Shown: positions 31,053 through 38,280 of the stretch, piece after piece | Numbering within the stretch: the stretch's first letter is position 1 | How the letters are laid out: every line of letters starts with the position of its first letter | UHGV virus genome: UHGV-0109738 | Direction: 5' to 3' (one strand) | DNA length: 64,000 bases | Source of the DNA: a virus | The notes under the pieces: model-generated | What the model was told of the DNA's origin: nothing | The model's database searches: none | The model's input: only the letters and a program-made list of their open reading frames with translations | Made by a program: the position numbers and the translations under genes

Positions 31053-31987
31053 TCTTCGCCATATTTAGCGTGCGCAACTTTATAGTTTTCTTGCGCCCGA
31101 TCTAATATTCGTTCGTTTAATATGTTACCGTCTTCGTCAACTAATACGGTAATCGTGCTACATTTGCAGTTAATTGAATTAGGGGATCTACTCCACCATT
31201 CGCGCTGCTCATCTATGGTGTATGTTTTACCGTGCCGCTGCGCGTGCGATAGCCTGGTAGTCGGTGATAATGCCGAAATGTGCATTTGCATAGTGCGCAG
31301 ATTAAATTCTTCTGTCGCCGCTTCTGCCTCATCCATACGCGCTGTGCGTAACGCTGTGCATATTTCAGTTCGAGCAATACGTTTACACCTGTATAGCGGT
31401 AATTGCGTCTCCTGATTCAATGTGCGCGCTATTTCCAGTGGGTTTAAACCACGGGCCATGCCTTCAGTTAGTCGGCGGGCCATATCCTTTTTGATCTGTG
31501 CTGTCAGCCCGCGCATTTCCTCAAATACACGGGTACGGACAAGGGCAAGGCGTGTGCGGTAAGTTGTGCTGGATAGCACGACAGACACATCAGGATAGGC
31601 GCTTGAGTACGTGACAGACTGGTTAGCGAGGTTGGCATATTCCTGTGCCGTGCCGCGCTGATAAGCCACCTTCACGTAATTCTGCCAAAACCAAAAACTT
31701 TCCGGGTCGGTTAGCTCGAATATCTCATCAATCATGTCGCTGGCGTCCTCCAGCATGTCATGCAGTTCATCCATGTAAATCTGAAAGGTGTATTTCTTAT
31801 TAACAGCCAGGCTATATTGTATTCTGTCAAGTATGGCGAGATATGGATCGGCTATTTTGTTCAGGCAGGATTTGAAACGCTTAATAGCGCCAGACCTTAA
31901 CTTCCCTGTCATGGTCGGGTCTTCGGTGTTAGATGGCATTATCGCGGCTGGAGGTATTCGCCTGATTATTTTCTTCACCTTCATCAT
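31043..31987 (-). CDS. head morphogenesis (minor head) protein
   Basis: 314 aa; directly downstream of portal. Confidence 0.5.
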   Translation of the reverse strand: MMKVKKIIRRIPPAAIMPSNTEDPTMTGKLRSGAIKRFKSCLNKIADPYLAILDRIQYSLAVNKKYTFQIYMDELHDMLEDASDMIDEIFELTDPESFWFWQNYVKVAYQRGTAQEYANLANQSVTYSSAYPDVSVVLSSTTYRTRLALVRTRVFEEMRGLTAQIKKDMARRLTEGMARGLNPLEIARTLNQETQLPLYRCKRIARTEICTALRTARMDEAEAATEEFNLRTMQMHISALSPTTRLSHAQRHGKTYTIDEQREWWSRSPNSINCKCSTITVLVDEDGNILNERILDRAQENYKVAHAKYGEDWE

Positions 31988-33302
31988 CGTTTTCCTCGTC
32001 TTCCAGTTCTACTTCATTAGCCGGGCCATCGTATCCGGCAGCTTCACGGATCTCGTCACCGCTGAATATTTCCTCACCAGTAGCGAGACATGCATGATTG
32101 ATTTGTGCCATTTTGTATGCCGCGTCGAGTAGCTCAGCTTTTGTCATGGCGTTAAGGTCGTCCCACAGCACAGATACGTCTACTGGCATACTGATAAGGC
32201 GGAGATCTGCCATCTTGCGGAATAGTTCCTCAAGCTCGCCTCCTATTTCCTCCCGGCGGGTCATACAGCGGTTATTGAAGTAGCGGAGGTCTTCGGTTGA
32301 TGCACGCTCACCCTGCTGATTCCCAACCAGGATACGCGTTGGAATGTCGATGCCAGCGGCGGCGGTTTGCAGGTTGACGTCATAGGTAGCGGACGGATCG
32401 GCTACGGCAGTAACCAGCGGGCTAACGGTAGCTCCCTGCAATGCCATCATCACATCATTACCTTTATTTATATCCTCTGCCGCTTCATTGAATTTTTCGC
32501 GTAGCTCTGTAACGTCGCAACCGTATGTTGCAGCCAGGGAACGGAAATCAATCTCTTTATCGAACGAGATAGCCAGTTGACGTGCTGCGTTTTTCAGGAA
32601 TGATTCACCGCTGCCGCCTTCCACTTTCTCCAGTGAAACGAATGCGTTATAGGACGGTTCAAGGAAAGCGATGGCATCATCAGAATAATCACCGAAGATA
32701 AATATGCGATCTGGATGTATCTTTCTTGCTATGGTCTTACTGTTAATGCGCTCCTTGTATTCCCACCATGTAGGCAGGCCATAGTTTTCTTTATCCGGGT
32801 TTTCTTCGAAGTCCTTCGGTGTAAGAGCACCAGCCCATACGGGGGTAAATTTGGCAATGCCTACGCCTTTTGTTACTGGCTGATCCCACGGCTTGTTATC
32901 CCTGACGTGAATTAACAGTCCAGCATAACGACCGATGAGGCGGCGGCGATCGCATTCAGCAATTACGCGCCAGAATCTATTGTCGAATCGTTTTTTGATT
33001 TCTCTTTCCCACGAAGTTTCCTTTTCCGCTTTCTCGTCTTCCGTACCTTCAATCAGCGTTGGCCTGGTGCGCCAGCACGTAGTAATGATCTTCTCAATAG
33101 CACCGTGAGCGATACCACCGCGACGATACAGTTTGTATAAATCGGCATAGGTGATTTCTTCTTTAAATCCGTATTCACTCCACGCAGCATCACGTTTGGC
33201 ATCTATCCCCATAGTGAACGGATGTGCCGCTGCATAGCGGGCAAAGGCCGCCTGGCGTTGAGACAAGGCAGCATTAACCGCCAATTCTAAATTGGATGGC
33301 AT
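31929..33302 (-). CDS. portal protein
   Basis: 457 aa from ATG preceded by AGGAG; acidic C-terminus; follows terL. Confidence 0.7.
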   Translation of the reverse strand: MPSNLELAVNAALSQRQAAFARYAAAHPFTMGIDAKRDAAWSEYGFKEEITYADLYKLYRRGGIAHGAIEKIITTCWRTRPTLIEGTEDEKAEKETSWEREIKKRFDNRFWRVIAECDRRRLIGRYAGLLIHVRDNKPWDQPVTKGVGIAKFTPVWAGALTPKDFEENPDKENYGLPTWWEYKERINSKTIARKIHPDRIFIFGDYSDDAIAFLEPSYNAFVSLEKVEGGSGESFLKNAARQLAISFDKEIDFRSLAATYGCDVTELREKFNEAAEDINKGNDVMMALQGATVSPLVTAVADPSATYDVNLQTAAAGIDIPTRILVGNQQGERASTEDLRYFNNRCMTRREEIGGELEELFRKMADLRLISMPVDVSVLWDDLNAMTKAELLDAAYKMAQINHACLATGEEIFSGDEIREAAGYDGPANEVELEDEENDDEGEENNQANTSSRDNAI

Positions 33303-33324
33303 AATGTTTACTCCTGAATACATG

Positions 33325-33348
33325 TTTACGCGTTGCTACGCGAAAAAT
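33325..33348. promoter_or_regulatory. conserved motif TTTACGCG-N4-TACGCGAAAAAT (copy B) upstream of portal
   Basis: tttacgcgttgctacgcgaaaaat; 21 of 24 nt identical to copy A. Confidence 0.4.
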
Positions 33349-33413
33349 AGAAAAATTCGTGAGGGATTGTGAGGCAGATTTTGTGTAGCTAATTGAGAAT
33401 TATTATTGTTCAT

Positions 33414-33432
33414 CTTCGAAAATTTTTCGAAG
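33414..33432. repeat. 19-bp perfect palindrome in terL-portal intergenic gap
   Basis: cttcgaaaatttttcgaag. Confidence 0.6.
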
Positions 33433-33450
33433 TTGATAATAATCAATAAC

Positions 33451-34935
33451 TTAAAACCCTCGCAGGCGCTTAGGTAACATAAGGCCCATTGCCTGTGGCT
33501 GGCTTAGTTCGGTGATACCCCATACCATTGCGTCCATACGGTCAGGGGATTTTTTGGCGGTAGCTGGCACGTATTCCATCATTTGATTTTCCAGCGTATA
33601 TAGCTCACCAGTGTGTGCCACCCTTCCTTGTGCATACAGTGCTGATATTGGTTCGGCGCGGGCGAATTTACCTTTGCTTGCGTGCACCTTAACAATGCGG
33701 CCTTTGAATCCTGCATTGCGTAGCGTGGCCTCTGCCATGTCACCGCCCTGGTTGGTTTCGATAACTATCGCGTCAGCTTCATGGATGTCATAAGCGTTCA
33801 TTGCTGCTTGCGCCCAGTCGTTAGGCGACATGCGGCCTGAATAGTCACCGTCTACTGAATACTGTGCGTACTTGCCGCCACCATAAGCGGAACACGCCAT
33901 GATCCCCGTTTCGTCTGACTCATCAGATGATGTTGTCGCAGGGTCAATAGCTATCACAGTGCGGATTTTCTCCTGCGTTATCTGCATCCGGTGCGCGGCG
34001 GTAATCATCGCCTCTGTCCACAACGCACCCTCTTCGTCGAATTTACGCGGGCGCTGCATGTACTGGGCCTCAAATGACCGTCTGTGTGCCTTCAGTCCAG
34101 CTTCATGGGCGTCATTGTGCTTTTTAGGCCATAGCCAGCCATCTGGCAGGTTATGAGGAATGGGGATAGCGAACTCGTTTTCAGGATACAAATCCCGGTA
34201 GTCAACGCTGTTGTCGATTTTCACTGGCAGGTTCAAGTGATACCACTTTTCACCGCTTCCACCGCGTAGCAGGTAGCCGGACAAATCATCGTAGTGGATG
34301 CGCTGCATGATGACGATGACAGGCGTTGTTTGCACCGCCAGACGTGAAGCAAGCGTGTCGTTGTAGTTGGTGTTTACCTGCTTTCTCACCACGTCAGAGT
34401 AAGCGTCAGCGGGTTTTAATGGGTCGTCGATGATTAACGCGCCATTAAATCCTGGCTCCATATACCCCGCACGGAACCCTGTAACCTGGCCAAGCGATGA
34501 CGTTGCATACACGCCGCCACCGTATTCAGTCCACCACATTGATTTTGAGTTTGCATCGTTGCGGATCCTCATGGGCCACATTGCCTGATATTCAGGCGTA
34601 CAGATCATGTTTCTTACGGTCGAGGAATTGAGTAACGCCAGGTTGTTGGAATAGGAGACATGAAGGAATCGTGTGCGGGGATTTATTGCGAGTGACCGCG
34701 CCATCATGTTGATAGTTGCGATCATGGTTTTGCCGTACCCTGGAGGGATGTTAATGATGAGTCGGGTTATCTCACCATTGACAACGCGTTGCAGTGCGTC
34801 GCGGATAGCTAAGTGATGGCCTGAGATTAACATCTTCGTTCCGTTCGCTTGCTTATAGAAGTAGCGATTGAAAAACAGGCCATCGTTTTCACATTTGGAC
34901 TGAATAACTCGTTCTTTGATTGTCAGCATAATCAC
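33451..34935 (-). CDS. terminase large subunit
   Basis: 494 aa; Walker A-like PPGYGKT; follows terS. Confidence 0.85.
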   Translation of the reverse strand: MIMLTIKERVIQSKCENDGLFFNRYFYKQANGTKMLISGHHLAIRDALQRVVNGEITRLIINIPPGYGKTMIATINMMARSLAINPRTRFLHVSYSNNLALLNSSTVRNMICTPEYQAMWPMRIRNDANSKSMWWTEYGGGVYATSSLGQVTGFRAGYMEPGFNGALIIDDPLKPADAYSDVVRKQVNTNYNDTLASRLAVQTTPVIVIMQRIHYDDLSGYLLRGGSGEKWYHLNLPVKIDNSVDYRDLYPENEFAIPIPHNLPDGWLWPKKHNDAHEAGLKAHRRSFEAQYMQRPRKFDEEGALWTEAMITAAHRMQITQEKIRTVIAIDPATTSSDESDETGIMACSAYGGGKYAQYSVDGDYSGRMSPNDWAQAAMNAYDIHEADAIVIETNQGGDMAEATLRNAGFKGRIVKVHASKGKFARAEPISALYAQGRVAHTGELYTLENQMMEYVPATAKKSPDRMDAMVWGITELSQPQAMGLMLPKRLRGF

Positions 34936-35417
34936 ACCTCATCTTCTACTTCCTGAACGATGCGGGCGATCTCTTCTTTTGTGACTTCTACCTGTACTGG
35001 TGCTTCTTCCCTGTTGCCTACGATTTCCTGCGTAACGCGTTCGCCATACTTACGCGGTTGCAGTTTTGCCAATAGCCATTTACGGGTTTCAATCATCAAT
35101 TGATGGCGGCGGCATTGGTCTTTATCGGTGTTCTCCGCTGCGTCCGCTATGTCGATAATCTCATCAGCCAATACCTCAAAACCGATCTCTTTCGCGCGTA
35201 TGTACATGTCCGAGAACTCTGGCACGTCTCTGAACCATTTAAGGATTGTTGAACGCGCAGGCATATCAGGCATCTTCGAAATCTTGTTAATACTTTGACC
35301 GTCCGCCACCAGCTCACAGATCTCTAATGCCTTTTCTTCGGTATAACCATGCGGACGGCCCACCTTTTTAGCTGCTGGCTTTTTATCGTCAGCTTTTGCC
35401 TTTTTAGTGCGGGCCAT
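34932..35417 (-). CDS. terminase small subunit
   Basis: 161 aa; basic N-terminus with HTH; 4-nt overlap with terL. Confidence 0.75.
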   Translation of the reverse strand: MARTKKAKADDKKPAAKKVGRPHGYTEEKALEICELVADGQSINKISKMPDMPARSTILKWFRDVPEFSDMYIRAKEIGFEVLADEIIDIADAAENTDKDQCRRHQLMIETRKWLLAKLQPRKYGERVTQEIVGNREEAPVQVEVTKEEIARIVQEVEDEV

Positions 35418-35582
35418 ATTTCACCTCTCAAAACCATTTGCACAGAATATATAAACACGCAATTAATGTTGCGCAGTATGTTACCGTTTCCAGAAAGTCG
35501 AATAGCTCTTTCATTGATACCATCCACTTTATTTGACTTGCTTAATTTAGGAAGCGCATAAAATGCGCGTCCAAGCCATAAC

Positions 35583-35651
35583 CTATTGAGTCAGTGCGGT
35601 CATGGTAAGAACAATCGCAACAATCAGGAAAAAGAAATCAAGCCATTTCAT
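35583..35651 (-). CDS. micro-ORF P7, hydrophobic peptide (22 aa) MKWLDFFFLIVAIVLTMTALTQ
   Basis: AGGGGG SD 6 nt upstream; single predicted TM helix; member of tandem array. Confidence 0.45.
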   Translation of the reverse strand: MKWLDFFFLIVAIVLTMTALTQ

Positions 35652-35736
35652 TTTTAACCCCCTGCGATTCAGTTGACACTTAAAAGCACCGCAACGATGA
35701 CAATCACTATAATCATGCAAAAGAAGTCTGCTTCCC

Positions 35737-35817
35737 TCATCTTTTAAACCCTCGATAAAAATCAACGGCAATAACTGTAATAACAGCCACCAGCAATAGC
35801 ATTTCGTATGCGTTCAT
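35737..35817 (-). CDS. micro-ORF P6, hydrophobic peptide (26 aa) MNAYEMLLLVAVITVIAVDFYRGFKR
   Basis: Start overlaps P5 stop (ATGA); shared N-terminal motif M-x-x-Y/F-D/E. Confidence 0.45.
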   Translation of the reverse strand: MNAYEMLLLVAVITVIAVDFYRGFKR

Positions 35818-35912
35818 TTGATACTACCCATAACAAGGCCGATGATTATGATTATGGCGACAACGCCTAGCATCATTCCGCACATAATCGCCAGTAATTC
35901 GAATATATCCAT
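35814..35912 (-). CDS. micro-ORF P5, hydrophobic peptide (32 aa) MDIFELLAIMCGMMLGVVAIIIIIGLVMGSIK
   Basis: AGGTGA SD; stop overlaps P6 start. Confidence 0.45.
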   Translation of the reverse strand: MDIFELLAIMCGMMLGVVAIIIIIGLVMGSIK

Positions 35913-35958
35913 GCCGTCACCTATACAACATTCTTCCACCAGAAATAGATAATGACGG

Positions 35959-35994
35959 CTACACCGACCACCAGATGAGATCGTAAATATTCAT
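35959..35994 (-). pseudogene. micro-ORF P4, truncated (MNIYDLIWWSV), hydrophobic continuation in -1 frame
   Basis: GAAGGTG SD; -1 frame continues VAVIIYFWWKNVV to stop at 35921. Confidence 0.3.
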
Positions 35995-36005
35995 GGTGAA
36001 CACCT

Positions 36006-36080
36006 TCAGCTTTCAATGAATATCATGATCGCCAGCCATACAGCGACGCATAAAGAAAGGATAACGAGTGGGTCAATCAT
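36006..36080 (-). CDS. micro-ORF P3, hydrophobic peptide (24 aa) MIDPLVILSLCVAVWLAIMIFIES
   Basis: GGAGGGG SD; start overlaps P2 stop (ATGATTGA). Confidence 0.45.
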   Translation of the reverse strand: MIDPLVILSLCVAVWLAIMIFIES

Positions 36081-36189
36081 CTTGCCCCTCCACCCAGCGC
36101 TTGATCTTTGCGTTTATTAGTGCAACTGCAATAAAACCCACCAGATATACAGAAATGCCGATCAATCCGGCAATGATATAATCATCCAT
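36073..36189 (-). CDS. micro-ORF P2, hydrophobic peptide (38 aa) MDDYIIAGLIGISVYLVGFIAVALINAKIKRWVEGQDD
   Basis: Translationally coupled to P1 and P3. Confidence 0.4.
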   Translation of the reverse strand: MDDYIIAGLIGISVYLVGFIAVALINAKIKRWVEGQDD

Positions 36190-36193
36190 AACA

Positions 36194-36262
36194 TTATTCA
36201 CCAACCAGTAATATTACAGCGGCAGCCATTCCGATAAACAAACCCAACAGAAAAGTAACCAT
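36194..36262 (-). CDS. micro-ORF P1, hydrophobic peptide (22 aa) MVTFLLGLFIGMAAAVILLVGE
   Basis: GGGGGTG SD; ATG 3 nt after stop of HExxH gene. Confidence 0.4.
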   Translation of the reverse strand: MVTFLLGLFIGMAAAVILLVGE

Positions 36263-36264
36263 AA

Positions 36265-36849
36265 TCACCCCCGTTTAAAGCTCATTACACGCGGTACAAG
36301 CGCTTCTTTTGCTTTAGGCTTACGTTTGCCTTTCTTCGCTGGTTTTTTCTCTTCTTTCGGCTCCTCTGCCTGTTCAACTGCCTGTTCTGCTGCATCAGTC
36401 GCCTTTTCCGCCTGGTCTAATGCCTGCTCTACGACTTCAGCCGCCTGCATTGCTGCAACCTGTGCTTCGTTTGATTCTGCCAGGATTGGGAAGAATGCGT
36501 CAAAGATGCGGCCTACCATGTAAGCATATGTCTCGTTTGCTGGGTGAGTTGGATCAGTGGTCGCCACGACGCCTACATCACTTAAAACGTGGAATGTAGT
36601 GTGTGCGCATTCATGTACCAGCGTTCCTAACTCATTATCGAATACTGCGATCACGTAGAAGTTACCGCCTTTCTCACCCGTGCAGGTTAATGTCAGGCCG
36701 CCTGCCAGTTCGAAATCAGGTTCGATCGGAATCCCTGCCTTCTCGCAAAATTCATAAAACATGTCGCGGGTCGGGCAGAAGAAAACAGTTGTATGCTCAA
36801 AGAGCGGAACTTTGAATTGAGGCAACTTGATGCCTTTAGCCTTAGCCAT
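36265..36849 (-). CDS. putative zinc metallopeptidase-like protein (HExxH motif) with lysine-rich C-terminal tail
   Basis: 194 aa; motif LVHECAHTTFH; C-terminus EEKKPAKKGKRKPKAK. Confidence 0.5.
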   Translation of the reverse strand: MAKAKGIKLPQFKVPLFEHTTVFFCPTRDMFYEFCEKAGIPIEPDFELAGGLTLTCTGEKGGNFYVIAVFDNELGTLVHECAHTTFHVLSDVGVVATTDPTHPANETYAYMVGRIFDAFFPILAESNEAQVAAMQAAEVVEQALDQAEKATDAAEQAVEQAEEPKEEKKPAKKGKRKPKAKEALVPRVMSFKRG

Positions 36850-37128
36850 CAGAATATTCCTCTATCCTGAAAAATATAACCCCCGCAAAACTGGACACCG
36901 CAGGGAGTGAAAACAGCTATAAAACACTAAAAACGGCGCTGCATGAGTACCGTTTTCAGAATTTTATAAAACTGGATAATGGCGCTTTCTTCTACCCAGG
37001 TAGCGCCCTACCTGTTAATGAGGTTGTTTACCAGGTATTACGTGTTTTTGACTATTCCGCCGTCGCTCGCGGGAAGGATTGGCCCGGTTATGGCTGGCTG
37101 GCAGAAACGGCGACACGTCCACGCGCTG

Positions 37129-37599
37129 TTATTCTTTGCGTAAGCACTGCGTTTTGATGTAGTCCTGTAACCCAGTGATCTGAGCGTCTTTCGTTTTTAG
37201 TTGTTCTCTGAGGGATAGATAAGCTGATTCAGCGTCGGGAGTGAGTCTACAGGTGGCTCCATCAATGGCGCTGGCGGATCCGGTGGGGTCAGACACTCGC
37301 ACGGGCGTTGCGTTGACGCGCAGCCGGATAGTGCCGTTATCAATACCAGTGCGCAGATCGGCAATGTCAGATCTGATAGCTTTAATTTCATCGTGATACC
37401 TCTTATCAAGTTTTGACAGTTCGGCGTTTCGCTCCTTCATCTGCTGAATAGTATTACTTGCTGTTTTTAGTGCGCCCTGCGTAGTAGTTAGCTCGCTTTG
37501 CATTGTGTTTATCACTGACTGGCAATGACTGAGCGCGGCAACAAGGCCAACAACAATACAAACAACAACGGCGATGATTAACGTCTTCACCTTGTCCAT
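37129..37599 (-). CDS. Rz i-spanin
   Basis: 156 aa; N-terminal TM then coiled-coil; follows endolysin; contains embedded Rz1 frame. Confidence 0.8.
37197..37391 (-). CDS. Rz1 o-spanin lipoprotein (embedded in Rz)
   Basis: [24 protein letters not shown] lipobox; proline-rich; alternative frame within Rz. Confidence 0.75.
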   Translation of the reverse strand: MKLKLSDLTLPICALVLITALSGCASTQRPCECLTPPDPPAPLMEPPVDSLPTLNQLIYPSENN

Positions 37600-38078
37600 G
37601 TTTCACCCCATTCGCAAACGGCATATTCAACCTCGCGGCGGTTAACCAGGCCTTGCCACTTCTTACCGCCAGCGTATACCCAGCGTTTAAGCTGTGCGCA
37701 CGCTTCTGATTTCTTGCCGTCATTGAGTAGCTTCAATAAGGTTGATGTTTTGAAATTGGTAGCGCCTACGTTATAGGCGAATGAATAAAGTGCTGCGCGG
37801 GTAAAATCTGATATTTCGACTTTAATATAGGGATCGATCGCTTTTGCGGTCTTGTGTAGATCTTTATTTAACAAAGCATCGCATTCTGATTGCGTGTAAG
37901 TCTTGCCAAGCATGATGTCTTTTCCCGTATGACCGTGGCAAACAGTCCATACACCAACAACATCACGATAAGGATTGTAATCAACTCCCTCTAATGGCTT
38001 AATCATCACCGCCGCAATAGCGATCGCCCCACCAGCCGCCGCCGCAACAATCTTGTTTTTCAGCGATTGGCTAATCAT
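37587..38078 (-). CDS. SAR endolysin (phage lysozyme)
   Basis: N-terminal signal-anchor [26 protein letters not shown] followed by lysozyme-like domain; start immediately after holin stop. Confidence 0.8.
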
Positions 38079-38079
38079 G

Positions 38080-38280
38080 TTACTTATTCCCCATTCGCGC
38101 GTCGTGTTCCTCTTGCGCTCGCTTGTTCTCCTGTGATTTGAAGTAATAGTTAACGGCAAATGTGCCTACGGTTGATAAGATACCCACAAAGACGGCAATA
38201 TCATTGATGGTTATCGCGCCGAAAAAAGCAGTTACGGCCCCAGTCACATACGCGCACGCCTCCCGTATTCTGTCGAACAT
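38080..38280 (-). CDS. holin (phage 21 S-type pinholin-like)
   Basis: 66 aa, two TM segments, charged C-terminus [26 protein letters not shown]. Confidence 0.75.

Follow-up and report, generated by a model that had tools for sequence, protein, structure and literature searches.

The 64,000-nucleotide stretch of the UHGV virus genome UHGV-0109738 (hereafter the window) carries at 36265-36849, on the minus strand, a single open reading frame (ORF) of 194 residues, which starts with ATG at 36849 and stops with TGA at 36267-36265. We propose that its product is a stand-alone, minimal gluzincin-type metallohydrolase, most likely a zinc-dependent peptidase, which in its own phage lineage would be expressed late and tethered to DNA or another polyanion by a C-terminal tail; taken as a whole, this reading is held with moderate confidence. 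The assignment of the protein to the zincin superfamily (Pfam clan Peptidase_MA) is probable, and it is referred to below as the zincin. The initial annotation of this DNA described a 194-residue protein with the motif LVHECAHTTFH; the minus-strand translation agrees, with H79, E80, H83 and H87 within that motif.

Conservation was judged from an alignment of the window protein with 148 representatives (149 sequences, clustered at 50% identity), which are about 25-40% identical to it. G51 (146/147), H79 (148/148), E80 (147/148), H83 (147/148), E106 (145/148) and Y110 (143/146) are each kept in at least 96% of the 149 representatives. Those that have no HExxH are frameshifted fragments or carry a single substitution. 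The family signature is HExxH-(x22)-E-x3-Y, with a spacing of 23 residues from H83 to E106; the combination of HExxH and a downstream Glu is gluzincin-like. In the solved structure of the ArdC protease domain the spacing from H205 to E229 is 24, and the ‘ETYA’ of the window protein agrees with the glutamate-helix motif given there, (E,H)xx(A,F,T,S,G) (PMC7213743). The earlier description of an HExxH metallopeptidase-like motif therefore holds for HECAH, which is near-invariant in the family; the downstream His that was counted with it, H87, is invariant among close relatives only and unconserved family-wide, the third residue being E106. HExxH is a short motif and no curated family is matched, so it could be argued to have arisen by chance in a non-enzymatic structural or hypothetical protein. 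The near-invariance of both His residues, the intervening Glu, E106 and Y110 across the 149 representatives effectively refutes this explanation, which we find hardly credible.

The fold was predicted with AlphaFold2. The full-length model (predicted local distance difference test score, pLDDT, of 76) comprises a compact N-terminal domain, a long helix (104-161) and a disordered segment (163-194, pLDDT < 50). The domain alone, modelled with 50 diverse homologues, has a pLDDT of 94.3 and a predicted template modelling score of 0.88. Its elements are beta 11-13, beta 21-25, alpha 28-38, beta 51-57, beta 63-69, alpha 74-91 and alpha 103-127, giving the topology beta-beta-alpha-beta-beta-alpha(HExxH)-alpha(E); HECAH lies inside helix 74-91 and E106 at the start of helix 103-127. 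The minimal zincin core of Iyer et al. consists of a sheet and a helix, then two C-terminal helices that carry HExxH and the Glu (PMC5512222), and the predicted topology of the domain matches this core. On the model of gluzincins, the metal would be bound by H79 and H83 of the HExxH helix together with E106 of the helix after it, and E80 would act as the general base; Y110 probably assists catalysis.

Searches against PHROGs matched residues 1-131 to positions 3-124 of the 127 in phrog_1365 (‘unknown function’) with E = 4.3e-31. Of the checks proposed with the initial annotation, structure prediction thus favours a metallopeptidase, in that the modelled domain has the minimal zincin core with HExxH on a helix; the comparison of profile hidden Markov models (HMMs) does so in part, reaching phrog_1365 but no curated peptidase model. 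An exhaustive HMMER search with the N-terminal domain gave 228 clusters at 50% identity, and a profile search of the family returned ‘hypothetical’ names only, with no precomputed Pfam domains. Sequence and profile searches of the PDB found nothing significant. The matches below threshold are almost all zincins. Among 50 family members these were SprT-like in seven (best E = 0.009) and single instances of M76, M50B, BSP and M78; among PDB chains they were myroilysin, astacin-type proteases (BMP1, tolloid-like 1) and a peptidyl-Lys metalloendopeptidase. These sequence matches, too, point to the zincin fold.

Several more specific assignments were considered. MPTase-PolyVal (PF18818) gave no match to the window protein at E up to 10, nor to the 50 family members at E up to 0.1; the polyvalent multidomain context was likewise not found, since family members are mostly stand-alone proteins of about 110-130 residues. 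Membership of M78 (ImmA/IrrE) was rejected, as one of the 50 members matched at E = 0.099, the neighbours are Rz and the micro-ORFs or small terminase (TerS), and no cognate repressor is adjacent. Weak Pfam/NCBIfam matches to Alanine_zipper (E = 0.019, below cut-off), Nop52 and aKG-HExxH hydroxylase (E = 1.5) were discarded as tail-driven or insignificant. We note that in one protein of 5449 residues (P0168) the family profile is matched in seven stretches at profile positions 3-24 only (‘KLPxFxVPLF’), away from the catalytic core; this is either a repeated short motif or spurious.

Not every protein with a zincin-like fold is a peptidase; the YbeY RNase is one with another activity, and YbeY-type sites use an H-x3-H-x5-H motif. 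The window protein matches no curated peptidase family significantly and its tail would suit a nucleic-acid substrate. It might accordingly be a metal-dependent hydrolase of something other than protein (nucleic acid, a nucleotide signal, a cell-wall precursor) or a non-catalytic metal-binding regulator. However, the H-x3-H-x5-H arrangement is not seen in the window protein and its best structural and sequence neighbours are peptidases. HExxH together with a helix-borne Glu and a Tyr is moreover the signature of a peptidase of the gluzincin type (PMC5512222, PMC7213743). We regard a non-protein substrate or a regulatory role as quite unlikely, and return to a peptidase as the preferred reading.

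The superfamily is well known, as are minimal and DNA-tethered zincins, and the present family already has an entry in PHROGs, under unknown function. It has members in classic model phages. Homologues located by tblastn include ‘Orf129’ of phage L, ST64T and ST104 (ST64Tp49) and epsilon34 gp70, at about 45% identity, and HkcC of HK620 at 36%; E values for the phage L/ST64T, epsilon34, HK620 and P22 homologues run from 1e-12 to 1e-25, with identities of 36-45%. P22 (NC_002371.2 13861-14226; L003:2501-2866, plus strand) has an intact ORF of 121 residues, identical to HkcC, between sieA and orf59a. This ORF is absent from the RefSeq annotation, in which the sole feature beneath it is ‘sieA promoter’.

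The window belongs to a temperate, Nus-dependent coliphage of the mEp021 (mEpimmI) group. The gene region is 88-92% identical in DNA to mEp044, mEp021, mEp515, mEp554, mEp010, mEp013 and MagusPhagus, and the zincin gene itself is 89-92% identical to those of the mEp-group phages. It was present in all seven mEp-like phage records searched; in mEp-group records the orthologue is annotated ‘hypothetical protein’ (e.g. mEp021_49). The gene also occurs in 34 of 5,426 complete E. coli genomes (about 0.6%), in each case on the chromosome, in mEp-like prophages and annotated as hypothetical. A word-indexed search found 122 close homologues of the 194-residue protein, nearly all from E. coli prophages.

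In this lineage the catalytic domain would have gained an acidic helical spacer of variable length and a disordered tail rich in Lys, Ala and Pro. The spacer (residues 124-166) is rich in Ala, Glu and Gln, helical in the model and has a net charge of -10. The C-terminus EKKPAKKGKRKPKAKEALVPRVMSFKRG (residues 167-194; also quoted as ...EEKKPAKKGKRKPKAKEALVPRVMSFKRG) contains 12 Lys or Arg in 28 residues, a net charge of +10. The initial annotation called it a lysine-rich, histone-H1-like basic C-terminus, a description that is borne out by its composition and predicted disorder and makes the tail a plausible DNA binder. Among close relatives the spacer varies by one 14-residue and by smaller indels. 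The basic block is kept, as is the end motif VPRVMSFKRG; K172, K175, R176, K177, K179, K181, P186 and V188 are invariant. An indel-tolerant helix followed by a conserved basic block suits a spacer that carries a functional tail, and binding of the tail to DNA or another polyanion is plausible. C-terminal extensions of at least 25 residues occur in 6 of the 149 representatives, the family median being 4. Outside the lineage of the query and P0118, P0121, P0165 and P0172 are extended by charged (acidic/basic) helices that contain Lys-rich stretches, and two of these extensions end in K/RRG; short basic tails are seen in P0189, P0254 and P0181.

Some short resemblances to the terminase were also observed. 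The ‘KKPAKKGKRKP’ of the zincin tail resembles ‘KKPAAKKVGRP’ in the N-terminal arm of TerS (KKAKADDKKPAAKKVGRP; 35340-35417, minus strand), and the end of the zincin (ALVPRVMSFKRG / EALVPRVMSFKRG) is faintly like the C-terminus of the large terminase TerL, ‘GLMLPKRLRGF’ (33451-33490, minus strand); both are too short for statistics. A similar pairing of tail and terminase is seen in L013, a relative described below. These resemblances may hint at a docking or DNA-binding element that the proteins have in common.

The order on the minus strand is holin, endolysin, Rz/Rz1, a gap of 280 nucleotides, the zincin gene, about 850 nucleotides of micro-ORFs, TerS, TerL and portal (Table 1). The position between lysis and packaging genes given in the initial annotation is correct, with holin, endolysin and Rz/Rz1 at 37129-38280 and TerS, TerL and portal at 31929-35417. 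Of the two hairpins in the gap, the first (36918-36968) corresponds to ‘TERM_6’ annotated in mEp021, and a terminator is annotated at the equivalent place in mEp013. The gap itself yielded no sigma-70-like promoter in a simple scan of the minus strand. Phages of the mEp021 group use Nus-dependent antitermination (PMC11893012), so the zincin gene is most simply read as part of one late transcript running on into TerS, TerL and portal. It would then be transcribed after the lysis genes and ahead of the packaging genes, past two hairpins that are read through by phage antitermination. We also note that the 36918-36968 hairpin is flanked by A- and U-tracts and could act in both directions. The +1-frame ORF within Rz (37197-37409, minus strand) encodes ‘LSGC’, which resembles a lipobox, and a Pro-rich tail, as an ordinary Rz1 o-spanin gene would.

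Table 1 Features of the zincin locus in the window
Feature	Coordinates	Strand	Basis
Holin	38080-38280	-	ORF list
Endolysin	37587-38159	-	ORF list
Rz with embedded Rz1	37129-37599	-	ORF list
Tandem pair of terminator-like hairpins (36918-36968 and 36880-36906), both with a U-run after them	36880-36968	-	RNA fold
Shine-Dalgarno GAGG, 9 nucleotides 5′ of the zincin ATG	36859-36862	-	Upstream sequence
Putative mini-zincin with C-terminal extension, complete gene (194 residues and TGA stop)	36265-36849	-	Orthologue of mEp021_49
Predicted catalytic domain, residues 1-123	36481-36849	-	phrog_1365 match, AlphaFold2 model, HMMER family
HECAH (H79, E80, H83), residues 79-83, on the predicted active-site helix	36601-36615	-	Reverse complement CAT GAA TGC GCA CAC
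NETYAY, residues 105-110: E106, putative third metal ligand, starting the next helix; Y110, conserved Tyr	36520-36537	-	Family conservation, model
Acidic Ala/Glu/Gln-rich helical spacer, residues 124-166	36352-36480	-	Model, indels, charge count
Basic Lys-rich tail, residues 167-194, end motif VPRVMSFKRG	36268-36351	-	pLDDT, conservation, charge count
Zincin/micro-ORF junction GTGATTATG	36260-36268	-	Stop TGA overlaps GTG; 2 nucleotides before ATG
Array of about 8-9 micro-ORFs, 23-62 residues as listed (longer ones are upstream-extended readings of 22-29-residue peptides)	35428-36268	-	Hydropathy, cross-phage comparison
TerS (Sf6-type) with Lys-rich N-terminal arm MARTKKAKADDKKPAAKKVGRP	34932-35417	-	Orthologues carry Pfam Sf6_terminase

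Two starts are possible for the first micro-ORF, a GTG overlapping the zincin stop (GTGA, 36268-36266) and an ATG (36262-36260) 2 nucleotides past it; the 3 nucleotides stated earlier are essentially right. Such an arrangement is typical of translational coupling. The micro-ORF peptides, of about 22-47 residues, are each essentially one hydrophobic segment, often after an acidic residue (M-x-x-[DE]-x-[FL]...). Types that recur across relatives are MIDPLIILSACVAVWLAIMIFIES, MNAYEMLLLVAV..FYRGFKR, MKWLDFFFLIVAIVLTMTALTQ, MREADFFCMIIVIVIVAVLLSVN and MKELFDWLEVLTYCASFVACVYIINKY. Comparison of seven relatives (L001, L002, L010-L012, L015 and L016) revealed that the contents of the array are gained, lost and reordered cassette by cassette, and the peptides resemble paralogues of one fast-shuffling family of single-pass membrane micro-proteins. 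The peptide next to the zincin opens with MIM.. in mEp021, mEp044, mEp554 and MagusPhagus and with MVIM.. in L015, though the rest differs. Because the GTGA/ATG junction is conserved in relatives, co-expression of the zincin with the first micro-ORF, as suggested in the initial annotation, is plausible. The array is not a requirement, however: in L013, whose zincin is 57% identical and has the same type of tail, it is absent and TerS starts 4 nucleotides past the zincin stop. The zincin would be linked in translation to whatever follows it, a micro-ORF in the window and TerS in L013.

The initial annotation also likened the locus, a peptidase next to small-peptide genes, to peptide-processing loci. 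The zincin would on this account be the maturation protease of the co-expressed peptides, in a phage-borne locus resembling those of bacteriocins or of ribosomally synthesised and post-translationally modified peptides (RiPPs). Some observations would fit: the first micro-ORF starts on or right next to the zincin stop, this junction is kept in the mEp relatives, and zincin and array are adjacent in most of the mEp-group genomes examined. The array is nevertheless a variable cassette of the mEp lineage. Apart from its absence in L013, it is shuffled among phages with zincin domains of about 98% identity, and in mEp013 (L012:2197-2682) and L016 (4563-5000) an HNH gene, inserted after the zincin gene and overlapping its 3′ end, separates the two. 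Over 200 other clusters of the family lie in unrelated contexts, and the array is absent from the P22-like loci whose neighbours were typed. The peptides themselves are little more than transmembrane segments, with no leader/core layout, and no RiPP or bacteriocin modification or export genes were found between Rz and TerS. The zincin has no signal peptide or transmembrane segment (maximum 17-residue hydropathy 1.18), and is thus likely to be cytoplasmic. We conclude that it is not a dedicated maturation protease for the neighbouring peptides; the processing account as such is very unlikely. With this tempting link removed, the array deserves study as a separate phenomenon. A second HNH gene was observed between endolysin and Rz in L015 and L016.

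The wider family was surveyed in 67 parsed Orf129-subfamily loci from viral contigs (L019-L098), a P22-like sample obtained with a single protein as query. The typical order is Rz/KilA-N/T5orf172, DUF2560, zincin, Dec-like protein, TerS and TerL. A DUF2560 protein precedes the zincin in 42/67 and a decoration protein like Dec of phage L follows it in 35/67. TerS lies at most three genes downstream in 53 of the 67, where it is gp3-type (26), Sf6-type (14) or Terminase_2 (13); this switching among three unrelated families points to a clear mosaic boundary. Other contexts of the family are the immI region (P22, HK620) and neighbourhoods with a ParE toxin, a deoxynucleoside monophosphate kinase, or a ribbon-helix-helix regulator and likely replication genes. 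It is the slot after lysis and before terminase that is conserved, rather than adjacency to micro-ORFs.

A prohead-maturation protease was considered and rejected: the zincin is not among the mEp021 virion proteins, and P22-like phages, which assemble their capsids with no proteolysis, also have homologues. Nor did a role in lysis find support, since a signal peptide or transmembrane segment is lacking and many homologues are encoded away from lysis genes.

A different role is that of an early effector, injected into the next host: the tail would bind phage DNA and the co-packaged zincin would cleave restriction or defence proteins there. Late expression adjoining the packaging genes and the DNA-binding-like tail are consistent with this. 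Proteins delivered along with invading DNA carry zincin domains more often than any other module (PMC5512222), ArdC couples DNA binding with a gluzincin of the same HExxH...E spacing (PMC7213743), and one source labels a 61%-identical homologue (P0118) ‘PolyVal Metallopeptidase superfamily domain’. Against it, the zincin is not among the 16 mEp021 virion proteins identified by mass spectrometry, an analysis based on gel bands that could miss low-copy proteins (PMC11893012). Two of the proteins detected in that work are encoded outside the structural cluster, upstream of the lysis genes (PMC11893012). PF18818 is not matched at any threshold tried, and most family members have no tail. We consider injection unlikely. 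A more elaborate proposal, rather improbable as it stands, assigns the zincin to the packaging stage as a protease tethered to DNA. Its acidic spacer and Lys-rich tail, with their faint resemblances to TerS and TerL, would bring it to the concatemer or the motor, where it would strip off or cleave DNA-bound host proteins or defence sensors; otherwise it would be co-packaged and injected as an effector like ArdC. The tail-less homologues of P22, HK620 and phage L would on this view form a class of small phage counter-defence proteases not recognised so far.

The late-expressed, tail-tethered peptidase that we prefer must be set against several observations, all of which weigh on the other side. 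No significant Pfam or NCBIfam peptidase model was found for the window protein or the family members, and a Foldseek search of the model against the PDB returned nothing at E < 0.1. Membership of SprT-like (PF10263) was rejected, as hhalign of the family profile with E. coli SprT/YggI gave a probability of 5.7%. We infer the convergence of H79, H83 and E106 on one metal site from topology only. Since most members have no tail, DNA tethering cannot be the core mechanism of the family, and in mEp013 and L016 a different sequence (...KVGKYIIAGQSRYAMG) takes the place of some 25 residues at the end of the tail, VPRVMSFKRG among them, a Lys-rich stretch remaining. The slot after the lysis genes could merely be a moron hot-spot and say nothing of packaging, members being found in immI and early regions as well. 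No functional experiments on family members were found in the searchable literature (hkcC, Orf129, mEp021 gp49, phage HExxH anti-defence proteases).

The analysis establishes the gene and its motifs, their conservation across the family, the topology predicted for the domain, the synteny and the variable make-up of the array, whereas we infer metal binding, proteolysis, late co-transcription, DNA tethering and the class of substrate alike. On balance, the most plausible role of the tail is to anchor the enzyme on DNA or another polyanion, and its targets would then be DNA-associated host or phage proteins at about the packaging stage. A ‘hypothetical protein’ thereby becomes a testable enzyme hypothesis for a family represented in long-studied model phages (P22, HK620, phage L and ST64T). 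Small proteases encoded by phages are candidates for a part in counter-defence or in the takeover of the host. That basic tails have been gained recurrently in this family is a hint of proteolysis tethered to DNA, as is known for Spartan and ArdC.

The closest known relatives of the zincin are Orf129 of phage L and ST64T, epsilon34 gp70, HkcC of HK620 and the P22 ORF, which are homologues of the catalytic domain proper, with HExxH...NETxCY. The Orf129-type copies share its slot between Rz and small terminase; the HkcC and P22 copies differ in place, lying in the immI region next to sieA/hkcB. All of these homologues differ further in their length of about 120-130 residues and in having neither acidic helix nor basic tail. 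Minimal stand-alone zincins are known, among them PDB 3e11 (114 residues, ‘predicted zincin-like metalloprotease’) and the minigluzincins proabylysin and projannalysin, which are archaeal or bacterial cellular proteins rather than phage products and have no tail. To these the zincin has no detectable sequence relationship and a low structural score. It differs from ImmA/IrrE (M78) and CapP in that it does not belong to their HMM families and adjoins neither a repressor nor a CBASS (cyclic-oligonucleotide-based antiphage signalling system) operon; PADLOC gave no matches. The proteases Spartan, Wss1 and SprT-like are alike in principle, as small zincins with basic DNA-binding regions that cleave DNA-bound proteins, and SprT-like is the sole Pfam family matched repeatedly by members of the zincin family, each time below cut-off. 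The third ligand of Spartan is a His (PMC7213743), in place of the putative Glu106 of the zincin, which also has no zinc-ribbon or zinc-binding domain (ZBD). ArdC of plasmid R388 (PF18818) is, like the predicted zincin, a gluzincin in which the HExxH helix is followed by a Glu helix and a conserved Tyr (PMC7213743, PMC5512222). The His-to-Glu spacings are 24 in ArdC and 23 in the zincin; both are borne on mobile elements and have a DNA-binding element, in the zincin a predicted one. In principle the zincin would work like Spartan, Wss1 and ArdC, but it belongs to none of these families.

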